From Enterobacteria phage Kha5h, in sequence record NC_054905.1: a stretch of 64,000 nt of DNA. One strand, 5' to 3'. Shown here piece after piece: positions 43,365-52,070 of the stretch (within the stretch, counting starts at the first letter, position 1; each line of letters opens with the position of its first letter). Below the pieces are notes generated by a model. It had not been told where the DNA came from and did no database searches. It saw nothing but the letters and a program-made list of their open reading frames with translations. The position numbers and the translations under genes were made by a program.

Positions 43365-45461
43365 TTATCCTTGAACGAACTTGTAAGGCATGTTTGTAAT
43401 ATCTATGCAAGACGCAATAATTCCAAGAGATGATTCGACTTTCTGTTTAACATTTGATGAAACAAATGATGCAAAATCAACTCTGTCTTCTATTTCAATA
43501 TCACCTGTCATTGCAACTACTTCGCCGGTTTCCATTAAACGGTCTCCGTCATAGATTACCGATTCGGTGAGCTCTTCCGTGGTCATAACTTCAGCTTGAA
43601 TGAGTTTTGTATTATTAGATGTTGTTCCGTCATTATTAGAAGCATCAGTTATTTTATTAACTTTGACCATCAATCCACGCGGTAGAATAACTTCAGCTTC
43701 TGTTGCTATTCCGAGACTTCCTGGATATACAACATTAACTTTATGAGCTCCATCAATTGCCCATCCTATTTGAACTTTAACGTATTCAGGATTTTCTTTA
43801 TACGCTCTTATTTCGTTTGGATTAATAGTTATTCCTTCTTCATTTTTATCAACTGTTAATTCATTGCGAGCTTCTGGTTCTAAAAGACCAATACCAGCAT
43901 GTGTAATTCCAAAACGTCCAAAAATGATAGGAGTTAAAGAAGTAGATACAAAATTTCTGAAGTAGAACACTTTATTTTTAACTAACGCTTCATATATAGG
44001 AGCAGTCATACTTTGAGCACGATAAACTGTAATGCCTTCTGGTATACGGTCACCATTTTCAAAAGCTGAATCTAAGTTATTTATAGCAGATTCAATTTCT
44101 TTTTCACTCATTACATCATATCGTTCTGGATTGTAACGACCTAAAAGAAGATTATTGATGTCAGTATATCCTGAACCGCAATATTCTCTAATGCCACGCT
44201 TTTGTGATGGAGTATATTTAGAACCATCGCGGGCAATAGTAATATCAATCATTGGACCAGCACCAATTCCAGAAAAACTGTAAATCATTCGTTTGAGGAA
44301 TTTAGTTTTTGCTGCGTTCCAGAAATTTTTAGTTATTTCTTCCCAGACTTCATCTGGTTGTCCTTTACGATTTTTATTATGATTAGCAAGCCATTTATCT
44401 TTATAATCTTCAAAGAATTGATTTACAGCTGCTGCGTATTTCTCTAAACATTTTATTGAAGTAGTTGGTTCATTTTTAATTGCATTAAAAATTACTTCTT
44501 TAATTTTTTCTGAAACTTCACCGACTTGACTCATTGGAAAGAATTTATAATCATAGTGAAGTTCATCTGCCGTTCCTTCAGCAATAATTTTTGCTGCCTT
44601 TGTTTTAGAAGCTAATGAATTAATTCCAATTTTCATTTCTTCTGCTTCGGGAATTAAAGGTGCAGTAGCTGGTTTATTAAAATTAGCTGCTGTAGATTCA
44701 TACTTCTGGAATAATTCACTTTCAAATCTAGAAGATTCCAATGACTGACTTTGTGCAATTGCTCTACGTGAAATTTTAACTTTAACGATTACAGCTTGGT
44801 CAGAACGTTTATCATTTTCTTGCGCAATAGATGCTGCAATTGCCTCATTTTTAGTTACTTGAGCTCCAGTATCTTTATTGATATAAACATCGCCGACTTT
44901 CGATTCAACTTTAGTAAAGAGCTCGGTACTAATTTCCGGAACTCCTGGAATGTCTTCTAGTGATACATTTTTGCGATGTATAAGAATATATGCATACTTT
45001 TTATCATAATCCCAGAGTTCCTTAAGAAGGACGTATCTGCCACCTGAACGACTACGGATAAGTCTATCAGCAATAACTTGAATTTGTCGAGCTTGACCAG
45101 CGGTTTTAGACTTAAGAATACGGAGCATACAGGCATCAATTTTATACTGACGCATTGTTTGCATTGCAACAGTAAAAACTGAATTGATATAATTAATTGG
45201 GCTTGGACCAAGACCTTTTAATTTAGCAATTGAACCTTTAGCAGTTAATGTAAAAGGAACAATATGCATCATTTTATCGCCCATCTTTAAATCGCGATTA
45301 GTATCACCTCCAGATGTATAGGTACATAAACGAAAGCCTGGCTGTTCAATTGCATCATCAACGTGAACTGAAAAAATTTGCGGTATTTTCTTCTTTGGAT
45401 TTAAGTTTGTAATCGGAAGAGTAGTATCTTCGTCAAATAATTCTGTAATAAGTTCCATCAT
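43365..45461 (-). CDS. alt: Alt ADP-ribosyltransferase (head-packaged), start possibly at second Met
   Basis: 698 aa; ART R-S-E motifs YRAQ, FVSTSL, EAEVILPRG; both an upstream hairpin and TATAAATA on the - strand. Confidence 0.85.
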   Translation of the reverse strand: MMELITELFDEDTTLPITNLNPKKKIPQIFSVHVDDAIEQPGFRLCTYTSGGDTNRDLKMGDKMMHIVPFTLTAKGSIAKLKGLGPSPINYINSVFTVAMQTMRQYKIDACMLRILKSKTAGQARQIQVIADRLIRSRSGGRYVLLKELWDYDKKYAYILIHRKNVSLEDIPGVPEISTELFTKVESKVGDVYINKDTGAQVTKNEAIAASIAQENDKRSDQAVIVKVKISRRAIAQSQSLESSRFESELFQKYESTAANFNKPATAPLIPEAEEMKIGINSLASKTKAAKIIAEGTADELHYDYKFFPMSQVGEVSEKIKEVIFNAIKNEPTTSIKCLEKYAAAVNQFFEDYKDKWLANHNKNRKGQPDEVWEEITKNFWNAAKTKFLKRMIYSFSGIGAGPMIDITIARDGSKYTPSQKRGIREYCGSGYTDINNLLLGRYNPERYDVMSEKEIESAINNLDSAFENGDRIPEGITVYRAQSMTAPIYEALVKNKVFYFRNFVSTSLTPIIFGRFGITHAGIGLLEPEARNELTVDKNEEGITINPNEIRAYKENPEYVKVQIGWAIDGAHKVNVVYPGSLGIATEAEVILPRGLMVKVNKITDASNNDGTTSNNTKLIQAEVMTTEELTESVIYDGDRLMETGEVVAMTGDIEIEDRVDFASFVSSNVKQKVESSLGIIASCIDITNMPYKFVQG

Positions 45462-45511: not shown

Positions 45512-45699
45512 TAGTAATCTAGTGGTAAGAGAGTACGATATATTTCAAACTTTGGTCCTTTTTCATAGGCATCAAATGTTTCTGTAAATTTATTATAAGC
45601 GTATGCATCTACAAATTCGAGAATGACTTGTGATACAGAAGTAGAAACATCTCCACCTTCTTTTTGAGCAATGACAATTGTTTCTAAGTAAGCTTTCAT
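45511..45699 (-). CDS. Hypothetical small protein
   Basis: 62 aa ORF between ligase and alt; start overlaps ligase stop. Confidence 0.55.
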   Translation of the reverse strand: MKAYLETIVIAQKEGGDVSTSVSQVILEFVDAYAYNKFTETFDAYEKGPKFEIYRTLLPLDY

Positions 45700-47159
45700 A
45701 GACCAGTTACCTCATGAAAATCACCAAATACATCCTCGAATGTATTAGCTTTAGTTTTATCTTCACGTAAACGAATCGCAATCGGAAGAAATAATTTAAC
45801 GTAATCAGTGCGGCCATCAGATTTTAACCAACCGTTGCATTCGCACTCTAGAATTTTTCCAATATAATAATTTTGGTTTTCCATAATGCGAGTACGGTCA
45901 AGCTCATGTGATTTTACGCCGGCTTTATCTTTTAAGCCTGAACCAGCATTTACTTTAATTTTTCCACATTCTGATTCAAGAATAAATCCACCCGCTTTAG
46001 TAGGGTCTTTACGGTGAGGATAAATTCCTACAATTTTTAAATCAACATCAATTACTTCTTTAAATTTATAAAGATTTTTTGAACGAGCATTTTCCCATAA
46101 TCCATCGATATTTTTGAGAATAATACCTTCAAGACCTTGGTCAATATACTTTTTGTAAATTACCTTAGCTTCATCTAGGTTATTTACTACTTGGTTTTCA
46201 ATTAAAATTACTTTATCATAGCCTGATGTCATTTGTTCTAGTTTAGAAAAACGTACATCATATTTTAAACGAAACGCTGGAAGACCATATATTTCTACTA
46301 ATGGAACATAGTCCCAGACCTGAAACTTCATGCATTGAGCTTCTTTTTCAGAAATGGTTCCTTTTAAGGATTTATTGGCGATTCCATTAGAAGTAGTACG
46401 AGATTCCGCTACTTCGGCGAATTCTTTAGCTTTACTAATTTTAGGATAAGCATCAAAAAGAAAATCTAGGCCTTCTGGTTCCTTTTTAACTTGCTCATGG
46501 TATACCAATTCGCCATCAATTAACACACCTTCTGGATGAATCTGGCGAGCTTCTGCAGTCATTTTGATTAACTCTTCCTTGAGAAGATCTAATCCTAGAT
46601 ATTCATTACCAGCTCGTGATAAAAGACGAACATCATCTAATTCATCACCTCTGACTTCAGCAAAGCACCGAGCTCCATCAGCTTTTAATTGGGCAAAGGC
46701 TGGAAATTTGATATTCTTATTAATGCCTTTTTCATCATAAGAACTTGCCAGCATTTGAGGTTGTTCAGGAATTAAACCTGGCCAAACTTTGTTTGCAATA
46801 GATACTGATGCACCACATTCAAGGTCTCGCATCATCACCCGACGCAAAACTTCAACATCATCTTTTTTACCGTCAGCAATATATCCAGTTAATTCCTCAA
46901 TTGCCGCATTTCCTGTCAATTTCCGAGTAGCTAACGTGAATTCAATGAAGTCAAGCATATCGGTAAGAGTCAACATTCCAAAACTCTGGGTAGCAATACC
47001 CGGTTTAGGCCATTTCTTGATATAATACTGTAACCCACGAGAATAAGTCAGACGATATACTCGTTTAAGCAATTCATTATCTTTATTCTTTTCAAGAATT
47101 GCTTGCTTCTGCTTAGTTGAACCAATAGATGCTATTTCGTTCAGAATTTTAAGAATCAT
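45696..47159 (-). CDS. 30: ATP-dependent DNA ligase gp30
   Basis: 487 aa, T4 ligase length; adenylation motif KADGARC. Confidence 0.92.
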   Translation of the reverse strand: MILKILNEIASIGSTKQKQAILEKNKDNELLKRVYRLTYSRGLQYYIKKWPKPGIATQSFGMLTLTDMLDFIEFTLATRKLTGNAAIEELTGYIADGKKDDVEVLRRVMMRDLECGASVSIANKVWPGLIPEQPQMLASSYDEKGINKNIKFPAFAQLKADGARCFAEVRGDELDDVRLLSRAGNEYLGLDLLKEELIKMTAEARQIHPEGVLIDGELVYHEQVKKEPEGLDFLFDAYPKISKAKEFAEVAESRTTSNGIANKSLKGTISEKEAQCMKFQVWDYVPLVEIYGLPAFRLKYDVRFSKLEQMTSGYDKVILIENQVVNNLDEAKVIYKKYIDQGLEGIILKNIDGLWENARSKNLYKFKEVIDVDLKIVGIYPHRKDPTKAGGFILESECGKIKVNAGSGLKDKAGVKSHELDRTRIMENQNYYIGKILECECNGWLKSDGRTDYVKLFLPIAIRLREDKTKANTFEDVFGDFHEVTGL

Positions 47160-47425
47160 TGTTCATCCTTTAGAGTTTGGTTTACAGCTCTATTATAAAT
47201 CAATTCATCATTAAGCTCAGTCAAAGACCTGTGGTACGTGGTTCTAACTTTATTTCCTTGCATCCAGTGCTTGACGTAAATGAAACCTTGCTCTACACAT
47301 TTTTTAAAAATTCGTTCGTCTTTTTGAGCTCGGAATTCTGGATTGCATCTAAAAAATTGATTTACGTGACCGTAATCACGTGTAGTATTACCTTCATTTT
47401 CATAAATAGTGTGAACGACAAACAT
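47156..47425 (-). CDS. Hypothetical protein (30.1-like)
   Basis: 89 aa ORF, translationally coupled to ligase. Confidence 0.6.
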   Translation of the reverse strand: MFVVHTIYENEGNTTRDYGHVNQFFRCNPEFRAQKDERIFKKCVEQGFIYVKHWMQGNKVRTTYHRSLTELNDELIYNRAVNQTLKDEQ

Positions 47426-48261
47426 TAGAATGCTCCTTGGAAAATATTATCACCACTAGTAGGTCTATTATACAAATACTCTATGCCACCGGGTTTAATA
47501 TAGTTCCATGTCTGAAACGGATGCGTCTGATATGGATGATATGGATTATAAGGATTAAACCCAGGAGTTCTCCAGGTAGTGTTCCAAGGAAAAGAATCGT
47601 TTTTGATCATCTTCTCAATTACATCTTTTATAGCTTTTTCACGATCAAAACTTTCTTTAATTTCCTTCGATGGAAAAAGCTTATTCTCGACATCATTCCA
47701 TGTATAAACTCGCTGTGCAGTTTTTGGAATACTGTCACGCTCTCCTCGAGCCATCCAATAAACAGGAACATTTAATATTTCACTCGCGTGATCGCAGTGG
47801 TGAGCGAGATCGTCAATATAACAAATTACGTTATATTTTTCTTTTGCTTTTTTGAACAGCTCTTCTTTTGAAGAATCATGACTACACATCAGTACTTCTG
47901 AGAAGGCACCAGGAAAAAGAGCATTCAAATTAAATTGACGATTCAGCAGAGCGTCAATAGAATCACCCAATGCTGTAACAGCTACAAAATTATAATCTTC
48001 TTTTAATTTGTTAATTACACACAGGGCATCTTTATATGGAGACAAGTAACGAATAAAATCTGAACGATTATATTTTTCAATTAACTTGACACCAAGTTCT
48101 TCATCACAGTTAAAGAGTTTACCTGGAGAAATAAATTTTTCGTCTTGAATCATTTTTAAAATATGTTCTAATGGAAGATTATATTTTTGGGCAAAATAAG
48201 GAAGGCCTGATTGCCAGCTTAAACATACTCCATCAATATCAGTTAAAATAGTAGGCTTCAT
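47425..48261 (-). CDS. HAD-superfamily-like hydrolase (30.2-like)
   Basis: 278 aa; N-terminal motif ILTDIDGV and a later YIDD motif resemble HAD phosphatase motifs I and IV. Confidence 0.6.
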   Translation of the reverse strand: MKPTILTDIDGVCLSWQSGLPYFAQKYNLPLEHILKMIQDEKFISPGKLFNCDEELGVKLIEKYNRSDFIRYLSPYKDALCVINKLKEDYNFVAVTALGDSIDALLNRQFNLNALFPGAFSEVLMCSHDSSKEELFKKAKEKYNVICYIDDLAHHCDHASEILNVPVYWMARGERDSIPKTAQRVYTWNDVENKLFPSKEIKESFDREKAIKDVIEKMIKNDSFPWNTTWRTPGFNPYNPYHPYQTHPFQTWNYIKPGGIEYLYNRPTSGDNIFQGAF

Positions 48262-48716
48262 AGAGAGTCTCTTAATAGGTTTAACACATCAATAAATTCA
48301 GCTTCGGTTAGTATTGTATCATCTTTTGTTAGACCACTAGCCATGCTGTGCTTCAAAACTTTTCCTTTCGAGGCTTGTAATGCATCACGAAAGCCCTTGT
48401 TTTGAATCGCTGCTTCAAAATATGCATTTGTGTATAATTCTTTCCACGCCGGGGAGTATCTTGAAAACGGAACTCCAAGCCAGAAGAGGGTCCCACGGTC
48501 CTGAGCTCTAGCATAAGACCTTCCAGCTTGTTGAGCGGCAAGCCCGGATAACCCAAATATACGACGTTGTTGTTCAACGTTTTTCACCTTGCATCCTTGG
48601 AGGAATCCTTCAAGACCTCCAAATTGAATACCATCCATGACGAAAGGCCATTGGGCGAAATTACTTAATGCACATGATGGCCACCTAAAATTGCTTCTAA
48701 TCTCTAACTCAGACAT
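48258..48716 (-). CDS. NADAR (YbiA-like) domain protein (30.3-like)
   Basis: Track ORF starts at an upstream non-ATG codon; ATG at 48716 gives 152 aa; motif LSNFAQWPFVMDG matches the FSNFAxWPxxxDG core of YbiA/NADAR proteins. Confidence 0.65.
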   Translation of the reverse strand: MSELEIRSNFRWPSCALSNFAQWPFVMDGIQFGGLEGFLQGCKVKNVEQQRRIFGLSGLAAQQAGRSYARAQDRGTLFWLGVPFSRYSPAWKELYTNAYFEAAIQNKGFRDALQASKGKVLKHSMASGLTKDDTILTEAEFIDVLNLLRDSL

Positions 48717-48915
48717 TTTCAATGCTTATAATCTCAACATCAGCCCAATGACCATAGCAAGGAAGACGAAATTCAACTGGCCAGTTAGGATCCTTTTCTA
48801 ATATAATAGACTTAACTTGTGGTTCTTCATGTTCATCAGTATATGGATTTTTATCTGTTACTTTATATGTGACCTTAATGTACTGAATTCCAAAAATCTT
48901 ATTAATTATATTCAT
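48709..48915 (-). CDS. Hypothetical small protein
   Basis: 68 aa ORF in the tightly packed - strand cluster. Confidence 0.5.
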   Translation of the reverse strand: MNIINKIFGIQYIKVTYKVTDKNPYTDEHEEPQVKSIILEKDPNWPVEFRLPCYGHWADVEIISIENV

Positions 48916-49109
48916 ACTAATTCCTTTAATCCGTAAATAGGAGATAATTCATCACCCATGCGAAGGTCTTCATTTCCATCTACCCAGGAAACAATATAAG
49001 CCTCTTTTATTTGAATACCACTCCATTTAAATGGAGGTAGAACCTTAGAAATTAATCCAGGTATACCAACTCCCTTTAATTCAACAGTTTGACCTAAAAA
49101 GAATTTCAT
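48912..49109 (-). CDS. Hypothetical small protein
   Basis: 65 aa ORF, start overlaps upstream stop. Confidence 0.5.
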   Translation of the reverse strand: MKFFLGQTVELKGVGIPGLISKVLPPFKWSGIQIKEAYIVSWVDGNEDLRMGDELSPIYGLKELV

Positions 49110-49396
49110 TAGAACCTCATCTGAAAACCGTGCGATTTAACATTACCGCCACCAATATCAGAGATATTAATTTCGCGCGCAATTGAAGGGTCAATGTCAA
49201 TTTCACGATTGAGTTTAGTGATAGCTAAAGTATCGCGCCCATTTACAGTACGAAACTCTAAAGGACAAACCACATCAACGTAGTTTTTAATCGATTCACT
49301 GGTAGGCTGCAAATGAGCAGGAAGGTCTTTAGGCGCCTTTGAGAAAACAACTTCGCAGAAGTTTTTACGGGTATCAAAATAAGTAGTCATAAACAT
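49109..49396 (-). CDS. Hypothetical protein; start trimmed to the ATG after a GAGGA RBS
   Basis: Track ORF of 107 aa runs through an upstream hairpin; Met 13 is preceded by GAGGAAA, giving 96 aa. Confidence 0.55.
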   Translation of the reverse strand: MFMTTYFDTRKNFCEVVFSKAPKDLPAHLQPTSESIKNYVDVVCPLEFRTVNGRDTLAITKLNREIDIDPSIAREINISDIGGGNVKSHGFQMRF

Positions 49397-49437
49397 AATA
49401 TTTTCCTCAGTAAGGGGCCGAAGCCCCCTCATTTATT

Positions 49438-49803
49438 TTAAATATCAAATTCATTAAGAACTACATCAAAGATTGCTTCAAGATGCTCAGGTTTAGCTCT
49501 GTTACTCAGAATATGACGAATCCAAGTTTTAACCAGAAGCTTGCGATTAGCACCATTCCAGCAAGGATGAGCCCCTAAATCGCGTTGACGGAAATCATCA
49601 TCCAGAGCAATTTTGAAGTTGGAACCTTCCATTGTGATTGAAACCGTGATACCGTTTTCAAATCGCATATAAACGTAATTAGGAGTCATATACTGCTCAA
49701 TTTCGCATACTGATCCATTTTGATGTTTCCAAAGGCAAATAGTATCAATAGAACCTGCAATACCATTAGAAACATATTTACGTTCAAAGTTGATGTAGTT
49801 CAT
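49438..49803 (-). CDS. Hypothetical protein
   Basis: 121 aa ORF preceded by a hairpin-promoter cassette and GGAGAA RBS. Confidence 0.6.
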   Translation of the reverse strand: MNYINFERKYVSNGIAGSIDTICLWKHQNGSVCEIEQYMTPNYVYMRFENGITVSITMEGSNFKIALDDDFRQRDLGAHPCWNGANRKLLVKTWIRHILSNRAKPEHLEAIFDVVLNEFDI

Positions 49804-49830
49804 TTTTATTCTCCAAGATGTTTAATTGCG

Positions 49831-49872
49831 GTACAGGTATATAATATCATATCCTGTACCAAAGTAAACAAT
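49831..49872 (-). promoter_or_regulatory. Hairpin-promoter cassette (early promoter with -10 inside a stem-loop)
   Basis: Reverse strand GTTTAC then inverted repeat GGTACAGG ... CCTGTACC enclosing TATTAT, followed by GGAGAA RBS. Confidence 0.55.
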
Positions 49873-50204
49873 TATTTTACTACTTTCCAGTGCTTCATGT
49901 CAAGTTTACCGACTTTTTTCATCTTCTCAATTAAGCGTTCTGCACGTTGGCGAGCTGTAACATAATGCCATTCACCTAATTCATTTTGTTCAATTTTTCC
50001 AACGATTACTGTATTCAATTCATAAATCCAACCAGTAAAGAAATTATGAACTTGAATTGTAAAGGTGAAATCTGTTCCCATACCTTCTGTTGTTTCTACT
50101 TCAATAATATCACCTTCAACTGCCATTAAGAACCACATAGTTTCATCATATTTACCATTGAAGCATTTAGTTTTAACTGCAGCGTTCAGATTAATCGTTT
50201 TCAT
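49872..50204 (-). CDS. Hypothetical protein
   Basis: 110 aa ORF preceded by GTTTAC...TAGTAT early-type promoter and AAGGAG RBS. Confidence 0.6.
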   Translation of the reverse strand: MKTINLNAAVKTKCFNGKYDETMWFLMAVEGDIIEVETTEGMGTDFTFTIQVHNFFTGWIYELNTVIVGKIEQNELGEWHYVTARQRAERLIEKMKKVGKLDMKHWKVVK

Positions 50205-50224
50205 TTTATTCTCCTTTGTTTGTG

Positions 50225-50265
50225 TAAGATAATACTATCACAAAGGAGCTATACTGTAAACAACT
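50225..50265 (-). promoter_or_regulatory. Early promoter with RBS-containing stem-loop
   Basis: Reverse strand GTTTAC, 17-18 nt, TAGTAT; flanking inverted repeat CTCCTTTGTG / CAAAGGAG covers the AAGGAG RBS. Confidence 0.5.
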
Positions 50266-50288
50266 TTATGCAATCTTTGGAAAATAAA

Positions 50289-50312
50289 AAAGGACTCCCG
50301 AAGGAGTCCTCA
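50289..50312 (-). terminator. Rho-independent terminator after the 30.9-like ORF
   Basis: Reverse strand AGGACTCC TTCG GGAGTCCT followed by TTTTTTATTTT. Confidence 0.8.
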
Positions 50313-50314
50313 AC

Positions 50315-50533
50315 TTATGCTTTCTGCTTACCAAAACGAGAAGCATCATCTCGAAGAACCGCACGTGCTCGGCGCATGATCTTCTCAACAGTTTGATTGA
50401 TACGAGAGTTCGACCCACGCTTGTAGCCAGCGCGTTTAGAATCACCAACTTTCTTTTCAACTGCTTTCTTTGCTTTAACTTGTTTTGCCATTATAAATTC
50501 TCTTTTAAATGAAAATGCAGGACTTATTGGCAT
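50315..50533 (-). CDS. Small lysine/arginine-rich basic protein (30.9-like); start ambiguous, 72 or 58 aa
   Basis: ORF with two candidate starts; strongly basic composition; followed by UUCG terminator. Confidence 0.55.
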   Translation of the reverse strand: MPISPAFSFKREFIMAKQVKAKKAVEKKVGDSKRAGYKRGSNSRINQTVEKIMRRARAVLRDDASRFGKQKA

Positions 50534-50736
50534 TGCCTGCGCAAGCCCTCAAGGGGAACATAGGTTTTTGGATATTTAACGACCAGGATAACCATAAACC
50601 CGTCATCATTCACATTCAAGAGGTACACCGTAAAACTGCCGGGGTCTTAAAACTATAATGATTCGCAAATCATTAATCAGACAGTTCGACGGCTCCTCGA
50701 TTTTAGCTCGCACTAAGGCAGTGAATCTCCAATAAA

Positions 50737-50985
50737 TTACTTCAGTGTTACCACAAAGTGACGAACTGCTTTTCGTGCAGCAGAAGCCAGAGGCTTAGCA
50801 TATTTAAGTTCATCTTTTTCCTGAAGCTCAGCAGCTAATGCAGTTTGAGCAGGATTCAGATGTTTGAAATAACGCAGGATTTCAAGAGCTTCGGCTTCAA
50901 CATCAATAGATGCGCCATAGTTTTCGTGACCATTATTCCATGCGTTTCGTTGCAGTTCAAGAGCGTGTTGTAATTGTTTAATCAT
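50737..50985 (-). CDS. rIII: Lysis inhibition accessory protein rIII
   Basis: 82 aa, T4 RIII length; position between gene 31 and the 30.x cluster. Confidence 0.8.
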   Translation of the reverse strand: MIKQLQHALELQRNAWNNGHENYGASIDVEAEALEILRYFKHLNPAQTALAAELQEKDELKYAKPLASAARKAVRHFVVTLK

Positions 50986-51124
50986 TTAAAAATTCTCGTT
51001 AGAGATTAAAACTCGGTAGTCACGTTCTTCTGAATTTCATCTTCTTTCGACAGATCTCTCAGTTGTAGACTACCACATAGAATTGTTCGGTTAACTTATT
51101 ATTCCGACACCCAATTCATATTAT

Positions 51125-51132
51125 TATTTATA
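51125..51132 (-). promoter_or_regulatory. TATAAATA late-promoter motif upstream of rIII
   Basis: Reverse-strand TATAAATA immediately after the gene 31 stop. Confidence 0.45.
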
Positions 51133-51468
51133 TCACTTATAAAGACACGGAATAGCTTTATAGTGACAGGTAACGAATTTTTGCTTAATTTCTTTTGGCT
51201 GCTTAAGACCCAGAGCTACAAAAGGATGTGGAACGTTTCGAATTTGACCAACTGGAAGAGAAGTCAAATCACCAACTTCGCAGAAACCTTCAGGAACATC
51301 AGGACCGACAGAGTGAACTACACACAGTTCAGGAACTTCACCTTGAACACGTTTACCGATGATAAGTCCTGATTCTGTAACTTCTTCATCACCGGCTTGT
51401 GCAGGTTCAGAAACTAAAATAACATATTCACCGACAGCACGAATTGGTAGCTGTTGTACTTCAGACAT
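51133..51468 (-). CDS. 31: Co-chaperonin gp31 (GroES analogue)
   Basis: 111 aa, T4 gp31 length; position before rIII. Confidence 0.88.
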
Positions 51469-51524
51469 CGTTTTTCCTTTTTGTTAACAGATGAATTAAT
51501 AATAACAAATAATTCTTAAAGCAT

Positions 51525-51833
51525 TTATTTACCAATAAATTGGAGTAAATGCTCAACTTTCATACCATTAACAGAAATCAATTTGTCAATAGAAAAACCT
51601 CGCCATGCACCAAGCTCAACATCAAATACTGGAATCATGTCAGTAGATTCTTTCCGAGTAGATTCAGTCAATTTACCAGTTTGCATGGTTGGCATAAAGT
51701 CTGCATCACGAGTACCTTTCATAGTACGAATAGTACCATCAGACTTTTCAAAAACTACGTTTGAAACACCCATGGACAATTTAGTTTTCAAAATTTCACG
51801 AATTGCTACTTTCTGCTCAGTTGTCAGTTTCAT
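51525..51833 (-). CDS. Hypothetical protein (31.1-like)
   Basis: 102 aa ORF. Confidence 0.6.
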   Translation of the reverse strand: MKLTTEQKVAIREILKTKLSMGVSNVVFEKSDGTIRTMKGTRDADFMPTMQTGKLTESTRKESTDMIPVFDVELGAWRGFSIDKLISVNGMKVEHLLQFIGK

Positions 51834-52070
51834 TTATTTACCTATTACAGTTTTAATATGAGTTGTTCCACGTTCTTTAAGGGTGGAAAGTAATTTTTGG
51901 CATTTTTCTAAATCAGATTTCCAACTATATGGTCTATCAATACTAGTCCAATCAGTTTTATAATACTGTTTCCATTTAGAGAAAAAATATTTCTTATACT
52001 CTACAGCAAATGAGATGTTCTCATTAGAATAAGAACTAATTGCTGTGAGCTTTACCAAACGAAATTTCAT
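51834..52070 (-). CDS. Hypothetical protein (31.2-like)
   Basis: 78 aa ORF contiguous with the cd stop. Confidence 0.55.
   Translation of the reverse strand: MKFRLVKLTAISSYSNENISFAVEYKKYFFSKWKQYYKTDWTSIDRPYSWKSDLEKCQKLLSTLKERGTTHIKTVIGK

Follow-up and report, generated by a model that had tools for sequence, protein, structure and literature searches.

Genes 30.1–30.9 of phage T4 (NC_000866, 127205-130540) form a well-known and dispensable block of small early genes. In HIDEN-SEQ transposon data for T4 on E. coli K-12, all nine proved non-essential, while ligase and gp31, which flank them, were essential. One member, 30.3, encodes AdfN, a NADAR enzyme that strips ADP-ribose off DNA and overcomes the DarTG1 defence. 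T-even phages require it for growth on DarTG1 hosts (PMC11825919; also the HIDEN-SEQ screen), and the AdfN authors suspect that it reaches full activity only with a further T-even protein (PMC11825919). A passage in PMC9409239, citing Truncaite 2006, documents RegB cleavage of T4 30.7 mRNA at the ribosome-binding site. Hyperplastic regions of T4-type phages also carry PeSL cassettes, in which a stem-loop or terminator plus an early promoter lies between small accessory ORFs; the papers that describe them do not discuss the 30.1–30.9 locus (PMC2839356, PMC4122927).

The whole 64,000-nt window analysed here, from phage Kha5h, is Tequatrovirus (T4-type phage), and its minus-strand segment 47156-50533 is very probably the accessory early-gene block 30.1–30.9, upstream of and co-expressed with the DNA ligase gene 30. 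Ten minus-strand ORFs, flanked by ligase on one side and rIII on the other, map one to one onto 30.1, 30.2, 30.3, 30.3', 30.4, 30.5, 30.6, 30.7, 30.8 and 30.9 of the T4 annotation. Gene order, gene lengths and junctions are the same in the two phages, as are the promoters, the terminator and the GGAG ribosome-binding sites. The proteins are 97–100% identical and nucleotide divergence is about 1.5-3%. The best database match to the 3.4-kb block is 98.5% identical, and at least 80% of the block is present in 473 phage records. The sequence-only reading had placed ten ORFs between ligase and rIII; the ORF list puts them where it said, but only nine are independent genes, the exception being 30.3'. 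Its observation of the block is confirmed and its accessory or anti-defence reading is supported, but since the block is well known and AdfN, within it, is a proven anti-defence enzyme, this reading is correct rather than new. The sole item that is possibly new is the folded, conserved RNA that immediately precedes 30.9. The ORFs are as follows.

47156..47425, minus strand: 30.1, 89 aa; DUF3045 (Pfam PF11243, 2.9e-64), 99% identical to T4
47425..48261, minus strand: 30.2, 278 aa
48258..48716, minus strand: 30.3 (adfN), 152 aa; NADAR family (Pfam PF08010, 2.2e-70), 99% identical to T4
48353..48580, minus strand: 30.3', an ORF within 30.3 in a different frame
48709..48915, minus strand: 30.4, 68 aa, acidic; phrog_2042 only
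48912..49109, minus strand: 30.5, 65 aa
49109..49396, minus strand: 30.6, 95 aa; phrog_2153; start follows a GAGGAAA ribosome-binding site
49438..49803, minus strand: 30.7, 121 aa; GGAG of the ribosome-binding site at 49814-49811
49872..50204, minus strand: 30.8, 110 aa; Pfam PF06019; GGAG of the ribosome-binding site at 50214-50211
50315..50491, minus strand: 30.9, 58 aa, net charge +14, pI 11.4

The Kha5h 30.3 allele is full length, with catalytic residues E36 and K43 and the C-terminal helix intact by comparison with PMC11825919; the inactive RB69 allele, in contrast, lacks this helix (PMC11825919). Judged by sequence, Gp30.3 appears materially no different from AdfN and from the orphan NADAR antitoxins of phages, which are related to DarG1 (PMC11825919; PMC11125620). 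It would hydrolyse the ADP-ribose that host DarT1 places on guanine in phage DNA, and replication would be restored. The ORF nested within it, 30.3', is probably spurious rather than a gene, because relatives have lost its start codon or gained stop codons. The start is ATG in T4, ACG in Kha5h and HX01, and ATA or ATT in Dhakavirus-like phages, and internal stops interrupt the frame in two relatives. Frame conservation is 73% and 61% for 30.3', versus 97% and 86% for 30.3.

In Gp30.2, which is intact in Kha5h, residues 1 to ~200 make up a HAD-superfamily phosphatase bearing a helical cap. A C-terminal helix (197-220) comes next, and then a variable, Pro/Tyr/Asn-rich tail (228-278) that is predicted to be disordered. 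Among 39 homologues, D8, D10, G11 and K132 are invariant, and T96, D150 and D151 are present in at least 90%. The AlphaFold2 model has a pLDDT of 84.5 (>90 for 188 residues), and its top Foldseek matches in the PDB are 5'(3')-deoxyribonucleotidases (2jao, 2i7d, 1q92 and 3bwv; E about 2e-8), which score only slightly above other HAD subfamily IA enzymes. With the NT5C-family 5'(3')-deoxyribonucleotidases (HAD subfamily I), Gp30.2 has in common the DxDGV nucleophile, the T/K/DD motifs, a Rossmann-like core and the helical cap; however, sequence identity to the four structures is only 14-19%, and the extra C-terminal helix and disordered Pro/Tyr-rich tail set it apart from these enzymes. Sub-threshold Pfam matches to NT5C or Hydrolase occur in 7-8 of the 39 family members, and Kha5h Gp30.2 itself has no above-threshold match in Pfam or NCBIfam. 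Gp30.2 is probably an active Mg-dependent HAD phosphomonoesterase. Because the active site would be capped, the enzyme should act on a small molecule, most likely a (deoxy)nucleoside monophosphate. The gene adjoins ligase in 11 of the 12 Straboviridae genera sampled (1456 phage records) and is therefore near-core, not hyperplastic; this near-universal site argues for a part in the metabolism of nucleotides or DNA and against a host-specific role in counter-defence.

The other seven genes, 30.1 and 30.4-30.9, gave no informative homologue or fold match. As the sequence-only reading had it, the ORFs apart from the HAD-like and NADAR-like members are free of recognisable motifs: Pfam and PHROGs yield only families of unknown function. 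No block protein matched PADLOC or NCBIfam. We regard the seven as dispensable, patchy early proteins without enzyme motifs that, judged only by size and expression class, most likely bind host or phage factors. Gp30.7 is predicted to fold into seven beta-strands followed by two helices; the model is confident and has no known structural relative, and it superposes on an independently predicted orthologue of 32-33% identity with a TM of 0.81-0.84. Among 1.84 billion proteins, the Gp30.8 family makes up no more than 21 clusters at 50% identity, and nearly all of these are 105-121 aa long. For 30.6 the conserved start is 49396, and a 107-aa version would begin inside a hairpin. Similarly, the conserved start of 30.9 is 50491; an in-frame ATG upstream, at 50533, gives a 72-aa ORF, the extension is not conserved, and the N-terminus MAKQ/MAKK/MSKA is kept in all loci.

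Gene content was compared across the 12 sampled genera, seven of which are Tevenvirinae. The resulting matrix is patchy: 30.4 is found in three (only Tequatro-, Mosig- and Dhakavirus; 719 phage records), 30.6 in three (T4, Dhakavirus and Jiaodavirus; 803 records), 30.1 in five (925 phage records) and 30.3 in six. Gene 30.5 is present in 7/7 Tevenvirinae genera (851 records) and 30.8 in 1040 records. Homologues of 30.9 occur only in T4-like phages (997 records), namely in all Tevenvirinae sampled and in one Aeromonas phage, so this gene is conserved rather than hyperplastic. Across the block genes, record counts range from 719 to 1509, and sampled genera also carry other, inserted genes at this position.

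The nine genes would fall into three expression units, for which the following signals were located.

51132-51125: late promoter box TATAAATA, upstream of rIII
50311-50290, minus strand: intrinsic terminator immediately 3' of 30.9 (9-bp stem, UUCG loop, U-tract)
50260-50232, minus strand: predicted early promoter for 30.8 (TTTACA, 17-nt spacer, TAGTAT, TG extension)
49868-49841, minus strand: predicted early promoter for 30.7 (-35 TTTACT at 49868-49863, -10 TATTAT at 49846-49841)
49860-49830, minus strand: 8-bp stem-loop GGTACAGG...CCTGTACC, interleaved with the 30.7 promoter
49427-49414, minus strand: GGGGC-UUCG-GCCCC hairpin between 30.7 and 30.6

The first unit would comprise rIII, the structured leader of 245 nt and the strongly basic Gp30.9, fed from promoters upstream of rIII, including the late box, and ended by the strong terminator; 30.9 thus belongs to the rIII transcription unit and not to the block downstream. 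In the second, two early promoters for host sigma70 are predicted to start transcripts at 30.8 and 30.7. The third runs through 30.6, 30.5, 30.4, 30.3, 30.2, 30.1 and ligase; since each stop codon from 30.6 onward overlaps the next start codon, coupled translation of this whole series is expected. The overlapping stops and starts claimed for the entire cluster hold at these six junctions (1-8 nt; 8 nt for 30.4/30.3, and ATGA where the 30.1 stop meets the ligase start), but gaps separate 30.9/30.8 (110 nt), 30.8/30.7 (68 nt) and 30.7/30.6 (41 nt). The interspersed early promoters and hairpins are borne out by two T4-type promoters, the terminator hairpin and the UUCG hairpin. Both promoters have GTTTAC, a 16-17 nt spacer and TAnnAT with a TG extension. 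A generic sigma-70 scan of the block showed no enrichment (15 sites vs 15.2 expected), so the promoter claim rests on the T4 early consensus, position, a 2006 study of the T4 region that reportedly supports it, and MX01, where the same promoter/stem-loop arrangement ahead of 30.7 is the one visibly conserved counterpart among relatives. The 30.8 and 30.7 ribosome-binding sites both contain GGAG, which the RegB endonuclease of T4 targets, and GGAG is kept before their orthologues in seven genera; like the promoters, these putative RegB sites are assigned in Kha5h through identity with T4. Composites at 50311-50232 and 49868-49830 resemble PeSL cassettes in arrangement. The terminator hairpin also has a weak, sub-threshold Rfam sRNA match. 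The 49427-49414 hairpin was rejected as a terminator, as no U-tract follows it; it is probably an mRNA stability or processing structure, and GC-rich UUCG hairpins before a GAGGAA ribosome-binding site are also seen in S16, Karamvirus and KR8.

The 245-nt spacer between rIII and 30.9 is a structured RNA that carries no annotation; its helices covary, and it matches no Rfam family.

50620..50698, minus strand: 5' half, module B, a long irregular hairpin containing GGAG
50486..50612, minus strand: 3' half, with (in order) hairpin S1 and a possible pseudoknot S2, an 18-mer, hairpin Z and helix W

The 18-mer, GUWCCCYUYGAGGGCUUG at 50559-50542, is invariant; hairpin Z covaries, and helix W pairs with the 30.9 ribosome-binding site. 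For the 3' half the covariance model scores 141 bits, 95% of cells are paired and both partners change in 9 of the 19 pairs; 0/500 shuffles match this, and slid controls gave 30-64%. RNAalifold, run for module B on an unfitted MAFFT alignment, returned 25 pairs, five of them with compensatory changes. Because of invariant G-U pairs, module B folds only on the minus-strand transcript.

The ORFs of the block are not all conserved core genes with housekeeping roles, since 30.1–30.9 are non-essential in HIDEN-SEQ and the flanking ligase and gp31 are essential. The suggestion of a plastic accessory region with likely anti-defence genes is backed by the published role of AdfN, by this dispensability and by the variation in gene content among genera, but an anti-defence role is shown for 30.3 only, and 30.2 and 30.9 are conserved. 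A broader version, in which the whole block is an anti-defence island and 30.1, 30.2 and 30.4-30.9 each neutralise a different host immune system, is conceivable but doubtful. It can draw on one proven member, on the early, dispensable and patchy character of all block genes, on the HIDEN-SEQ assignment of other T4 genes of unknown function to Septu and DarTG2, and on the further T-even protein suspected by the AdfN authors. However, where the T4 transposon library was challenged with DarTG1 the text names only 30.3, no 30.x gene but 30.3 is mentioned among the conditionally essential hits on clinical isolates, and neither PADLOC nor any other family link was found; 30.2, moreover, stays with ligase in genera whose hosts differ greatly, which a general metabolic role fits better. 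That same adjacency, together with translational coupling toward ligase and a weak polynucleotide kinase match in PHROGs (E = 0.0056), could indicate that Gp30.2 is a DNA-end 3'-phosphatase preparing nicks for its neighbour, with an end-healing role resembling that of the phosphatase domain in T4 polynucleotide kinase. Among HAD enzymes, helical caps placed between motifs I and II are typical of those acting on small molecules, and macromolecular-end phosphatases are cap-less. As the model has such a cap, of ~75 residues (helices 16-86), and its best fold matches are deoxyribonucleotidases rather than PNKP-type phosphatases, we consider the 3'-phosphatase unlikely and favour the nucleotidase-like enzyme.

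Whether the frames are coding bears on both the small genes and the leader. It is highly improbable that 30.2 and 30.3 are the only genes and the small ORFs chance frames in AT-rich early DNA, as their sizes (58-121 aa), the absence of known domains and the spurious look of the annotated 30.3' might suggest: 30.1 and 30.4-30.9 remain intact at 33-93% amino acid identity in genera where ligase identity is only 55-71%, every one of them has a family of its own in Pfam or PHROGs and a ribosome-binding site or coupled start, and the 30.7 model superposes on its orthologue as described above. Thus nine of the ten ORFs are real, independent genes. For the spacer, older records and some genomes annotate a protein of 72-102 aa, a 47-aa CDS is annotated in KR8 on the opposite strand, and Kha5h has a 49-aa plus-strand ORF (50509-50658), so that the spacer might instead be a longer 30.9 N-terminus (the old 97-aa 'ORF D'), an opposite-strand gene or a promoter spacer. 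This seems improbable, given that 1-2 nt indels and whole-module insertions or deletions break every frame between genera, the MAK/MSK start of 30.9 is fixed, substitutions within helices are compensatory, and the invariant G-U pairs would read as A-C if the other strand were transcribed.

Read as an RNA element, the rIII–30.9 leader can be compared with autogenously regulated structured mRNA leaders, namely the T4 gene 32 pseudoknot operator and leaders of ribosomal-protein mRNAs in E. coli. It likewise combines a pseudoknot-like element, a conserved single-stranded sequence and a helix occluding the ribosome-binding site, and immediately precedes the gene for Gp30.9, which is small and highly basic. 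It has no sequence or Rfam similarity to these systems, however, and which modules are present, and in what order, differs from genus to genus, an unusual trait for a single compact operator. Between Kha5h and T4, helix B differs by one base, with G-U replacing A-U.

The block between DNA ligase (gene 30) and rIII shows the same strand and gene order as in T4, as judged from an ORF map set against the T4 annotation and from tblastn. All ten minus-strand ORFs named in the sequence-only reading were found in the window, and all ten annotated products are 97–100% identical in amino-acid sequence to their T4 counterparts, full length and one-to-one (local tblastn). The 3.4-kb stretch is 98.5% identical to the best deposited phage match, and at least 80% of it is present in 473 phage records, nearly all of them T4-type phages of Escherichia, Shigella or Yersinia. 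The genes, each matched to its T4 counterpart, and their two flanks are as follows.

45696-47159, DNA ligase (flank)
47156-47425, minus strand, 30.1 (DUF3045)
47425-48261, minus strand, 30.2
48258-48716, minus strand, 30.3 (adfN)
48353-48580, minus strand, 30.3', in another frame within 30.3
48709-48915, minus strand, 30.4
48912-49109, minus strand, 30.5
49109-49396, minus strand, 30.6
49438-49803, minus strand, 30.7
49872-50204, minus strand, 30.8
50315-50491, minus strand, 30.9
50737-50985, rIII (flank)

Position 50533, previously taken as the upper limit of the block, corresponds to an upstream in-frame ATG; the start kept in all relatives is at 50491. The start codon of 30.3' is ATG in T4, ACG in the window and in the Mosigvirus HX01, and ATA or ATT in Dhakavirus-like phages. 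The 30.3' frame contains internal stops in two relatives and is less conserved than the 30.3 frame. This ORF is probably spurious, which would reduce the gene count from ten to nine. The other small ORFs are evidently real genes, because they remain intact, at 33–93% identity, in genera whose ligases are merely 55–71% identical, and because each has a Pfam or PHROG family of its own. Hence, the packed cluster of small ORFs proposed from the sequence does exist on the minus strand, albeit with one gene fewer, and the overlapping stop and start codons attributed to it are seen from 30.6 onward but not elsewhere in the block. Public records carry some evidently wrong names here: the label '1,4-alpha-glucan branching enzyme' is attached to a 30.9 homologue, a 'putative baseplate hub' is among the features under the block region in JLBYU phage records, and a 30.2 homologue is mislabelled 'DNA ligase' in a deposited genome.

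Gp30.3 belongs to the NADAR family (PF08010, 235 bits versus a cut-off of 36). In T4, gene 30.3 has been renamed adfN, and its product is a NADAR enzyme that strips ADP-ribose from DNA and is both necessary and sufficient for resistance of T-even phages to the host defence DarTG1 (PMC11825919). The AdfN authors cite an independent report of its in vitro activity (PMC11125620), and a T4 transposon screen (HIDEN-SEQ) found 30.3 to be dispensable on K-12 and required on DarTG1 hosts. Full activity depends on catalytic Glu36 and Lys43 and on a C-terminal helix (PMC11825919), and the AdfN authors suspect that another T-even factor contributes. The translated window protein has E36, K43 and this helix, ending ...LNLLRDSL as in T4, whereas the inactive AdfN allele of RB69 is without the helix. 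Removal of ADP-ribose from DNA guanine and rescue from DarTG1 were shown experimentally for the T4 protein, to which the window protein is 99% identical. The distribution of adfN is patchy (6 of 12 sampled Straboviridae genera), and the window gene is 97% identical to that of HX01, compared to 71% for the flanking 30.2 and 47% for 30.4. Given this mosaic of identities and the patchy distribution, the data are consistent with recent exchange of this counter-defence gene.

The sequence-only reading held that this is a plastic region of the kind that harbours anti-defence genes. Because the ORFs are not all core housekeeping genes, and one of them, 30.3, is a demonstrated counter-defence gene, that interpretation is supported. 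The NADAR-like ORF flagged from sequence is the exact gene shown in 2024–25 to defeat DarTG1, confirming that dense, early, overlapping small ORFs in raw sequence can point to real counter-defence loci. As the block and its interpretation are already in the T4 literature, there is no novelty in the finding, and re-identifying a catalogued T4 region adds little alone.

Gene 30.2 is near-core and not hyperplastic, because it lies directly upstream of ligase, or is parted from it by 30.1 alone, in 11 of the 12 genera, and is found in 1456 phage records. Among these 11 are Slopekvirus, Lazarusvirus, Tulanevirus and a KVP40-like phage. The four HAD motifs of Gp30.2 (I, DxD; II, Thr/Ser; III, Lys; IV, DD) are kept across 39 homologues, with D8, D10 and K132 invariant and T96, D150 and D151 present in at least 90%. 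An AlphaFold2 model (pLDDT 84.5) consists of a Rossmann-like core and a cap domain, with residues 1–220 confident and 228–278 disordered. When this model was compared to the PDB with Foldseek, 114 matches were obtained at E ≤ 0.001, with HAD-fold hydrolases making up nearly all of the top 50. Among solved structures, the best are 5'(3')-deoxyribonucleotidases, both cytosolic and mitochondrial, together with a deoxyribonucleotidase-like protein that is staphylococcal; the top match is 2jao (1.9e-8), with other HAD subfamily IA enzymes scoring almost equally. By sequence, 2jao is the sole PDB match, and a weak one (E = 0.92). No Pfam or NCBIfam family matched the window protein at E ≤ 0.1, and 7–8 of the 39 relatives have sub-threshold matches to Pfam NT5C and Hydrolase.

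We infer that Gp30.2 is a phosphatase with a cap that acts on small molecules, (deoxy)nucleotides being the most likely substrates; a rival reading is that it acts as a DNA-end phosphatase assisting ligase. In the HIDEN-SEQ supplement (T4 transposon data), all nine genes of the block are non-essential on K-12, and ligase and gp31 are essential. That an apparently intact phosphatase is kept beside DNA ligase in most of the Straboviridae genera sampled but is dispensable under laboratory conditions suggests a conditional, testable role in nucleotide or DNA metabolism.

For the other seven genes, 30.1 and 30.4–30.9, Pfam, PHROGs, PADLOC and NCBIfam provided no informative match, in line with the earlier impression that only the HAD-like and NADAR-like members have a recognisable motif. 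With PADLOC and NCBIfam, none of the nine proteins had a match, and PDB sequence searches with 30.2, 30.3, 30.7 and 30.8 gave none that were significant. The literature, searched by the names of the genes and Pfam families and by DUF number, yielded nothing on 30.1, 30.2 or 30.4–30.8; for 30.9, the sole item was a cited study from 2003 on how rIII and 30.9 are expressed in vivo. Phage records per gene range from 719 (30.4) to 1509 (30.3). In an exhaustive HMMER search of 1.84 billion proteins, 30.8 was represented by about 20 phage clusters at 50% identity; two giant repeat proteins were rejected as relatives, their matches being judged compositional and their Pfam content unrelated. Gp30.9, with 58 residues and a net charge of +14, has homologues in T4-like phages only. 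There are, then, seven dispensable early proteins without assigned function, among them 30.7, which has a confidently predicted fold and no solved relative.

Junction spacing and sequence divide the block into three expression units. In unit 1, rIII is followed by a 245-nt spacer and then 30.9; unit 2 is made up of 30.8 and 30.7, with a T4-type early promoter ahead of each; and unit 3 begins with 30.6 and ends with ligase. The six junctions of unit 3 all overlap by 1–8 nt, implying that this run would be translationally coupled. The sites associated with units 1 and 2 are as follows.

51125-51132, minus strand, late-promoter box TATAAATA, immediately upstream of rIII
50311-50290, 9-bp UUCG hairpin with U-tract, after 30.9
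50260-50232, early promoter of 30.8
49868-49841, early promoter of 30.7, interleaved with an 8-bp stem-loop

Sites found by a generic sigma-70 scan are no more frequent than in shuffled sequence, and their count was not used as evidence; therefore, the promoter calls are based on position, the literature and the T4 early consensus. In the window as a whole, 18 T4 late-promoter boxes were observed, compared to 9.5 expected by chance. Two sites in the block (50311-50232 and 49868-49830) are arranged like the PeSL cassette, where a stem-loop or terminator adjoins an early promoter between accessory ORFs. The ribosome-binding sites of 30.8 (AAAGGAGAAUAAAAUG) and 30.7 (UUGGAGAAUAAAAAUG) contain GGAG, which is conserved in seven genera. 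This motif is the target of the T4 endonuclease RegB, and cleavage of T4 30.7 mRNA is documented (PMC9409239). Ahead of 30.6 is a GGGGC-UUCG-GCCCC hairpin, of which S16, Karamvirus and KR8 have equivalents. The paper on 30.7 cleavage cites Truncaite et al. 2006 (Virology 344:378), who reportedly studied exactly the 30.x regulatory region.

The spacer of unit 1 is possibly, though not quite probably, a previously undescribed, Tevenvirinae-specific structured RNA leader controlling translation of Gp30.9. It is 205–380 nt long in every Tevenvirinae locus fetched, with G+C above that of its surroundings, and was seen in the window, in seven related phage loci (L001–L007) and in IMG/VR loci L014–L042. 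From 5' to 3', it consists of a long hairpin, a second hairpin that may form a pseudoknot, an 18-mer, hairpin Z and helix W, and these modules vary in order and presence between genera.

50492-50736, minus strand, structured leader candidate (245-nt rIII-30.9 spacer)
50559-50542, invariant 18-mer GTWCCCYTYGAGGGCTTG (GUWCCCYUYGAGGGCUUG), 65–107 nt upstream of the 30.9 start

The 18-mer shows no variation among the eight aligned sequences, which represent seven genera, or in 26 T4-like phage contigs from IMG/VR. Directly 3' of it, hairpin Z has a register fixed with respect to both anchors and a loop of about 10 to 47 nt, and its stem has been rewritten in at least five compensated versions, including GCAGG/CCUGC, GAACUGG/CCAGUUC, GGGAGC/GCUCCC and GGGAAC/GUUCCC. 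In hairpin S1, 5' of the 18-mer, A-U is exchanged for G-C and AC/GU for UU/AA. S2, the possible pseudoknot helix, is strong in Karamvirus-type sequences; in T4-type sequences, including the window, it is no better than shuffles. In helix W, the leader pairs with the ribosome-binding site of 30.9. A covariance model built from T4-type sequences gave one match per Tevenvirinae locus (window 50612-50486, 141 bits). In the covariance-model alignment, which is biased towards the structure because it was fitted to it, 95% of cells are paired and 9 of 19 pairs change on both sides; none of 500 shuffles reach the leader pairing, and slid registers give 30–64%. Independently, RNAalifold on a plain MAFFT alignment predicted a 25-pair hairpin in the 5' half (50698-50620), with five pairs compensated and invariant G-U pairs that work solely on the minus-strand transcript. 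RNAalifold missed hairpin Z because MAFFT misaligned the 3' half, where anchor-based registers and the covariance-model alignment were used instead. Single-sequence folding was not significant (z = −1.5), and hence the structure is shown by comparative analysis alone. As would be expected of a cis-regulatory leader or riboswitch-like element, the conserved secondary structure is backed by compensatory changes. Rfam gave no relevant match at E ≤ 1 (window 46000-52000) or E ≤ 0.1 (four related loci), with sub-threshold chance matches only.

What might this conserved element do? A coding extension of 30.9 (the old 97-aa ORF) is excluded, because indels between genera break the frame. Nor is it a repeated mobile element, as each genome has one copy (769 places across 769 records). 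Hairpin Z was likewise rejected as an intrinsic terminator, with its 5–7 bp stem, loop of 10–47 nt and interrupted U-run. The most economical hypothesis is that the leader is a translational operator for 30.9, in which helix W would sequester the ribosome-binding site. Translation of the small, highly basic Gp30.9 could then be governed by autogenous binding or by an axis of RIII and ribosomal protein S1. RIII, encoded just upstream of the leader, binds S1 and has recently been linked to S1 and RegB; this binding may be relevant to the leader. No description of the RNA was found in the searchable literature, and it may be among the >10,000 candidate phage RNAs of a 2023 survey. In the most studied of all phages there appears to be a conserved folded RNA that is not in Rfam and is unannotated in almost all records; if regulatory, it would represent a new element of post-transcriptional control next to RIII.

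A further RNA-like module of ~140 nt (GGCAAGUGCAUGCUACCCCGAGG...) is inserted at differing leader positions in Karam-, Jiaoda-, Kanagawa- and some Dhakavirus-like phages (L003, L006, L007, L014 and L024). It contains GNRA-loop hairpins with compensatory changes and has no Rfam match at E ≤ 0.1. In L030 (IMGVR_UViG_2974717474_000001, ~2027-2153), a 3' fragment of rIII is fused to the leader, after which come tRNA genes; this is either a rearranged variant or an assembly artefact. Phage phi92 (NC_023693, 53492-53736), which is not known to be T4-like, carries the leader at 98.8% identity adjoining an rIII homologue, suggesting recent lateral transfer of the rIII-leader unit. Finally, Alt (43365-45461, minus strand) is 698 aa in the window versus 682 aa in T4, and Dhakavirus MX01 has three tandem Alt paralogues (L005, 9759-16019).
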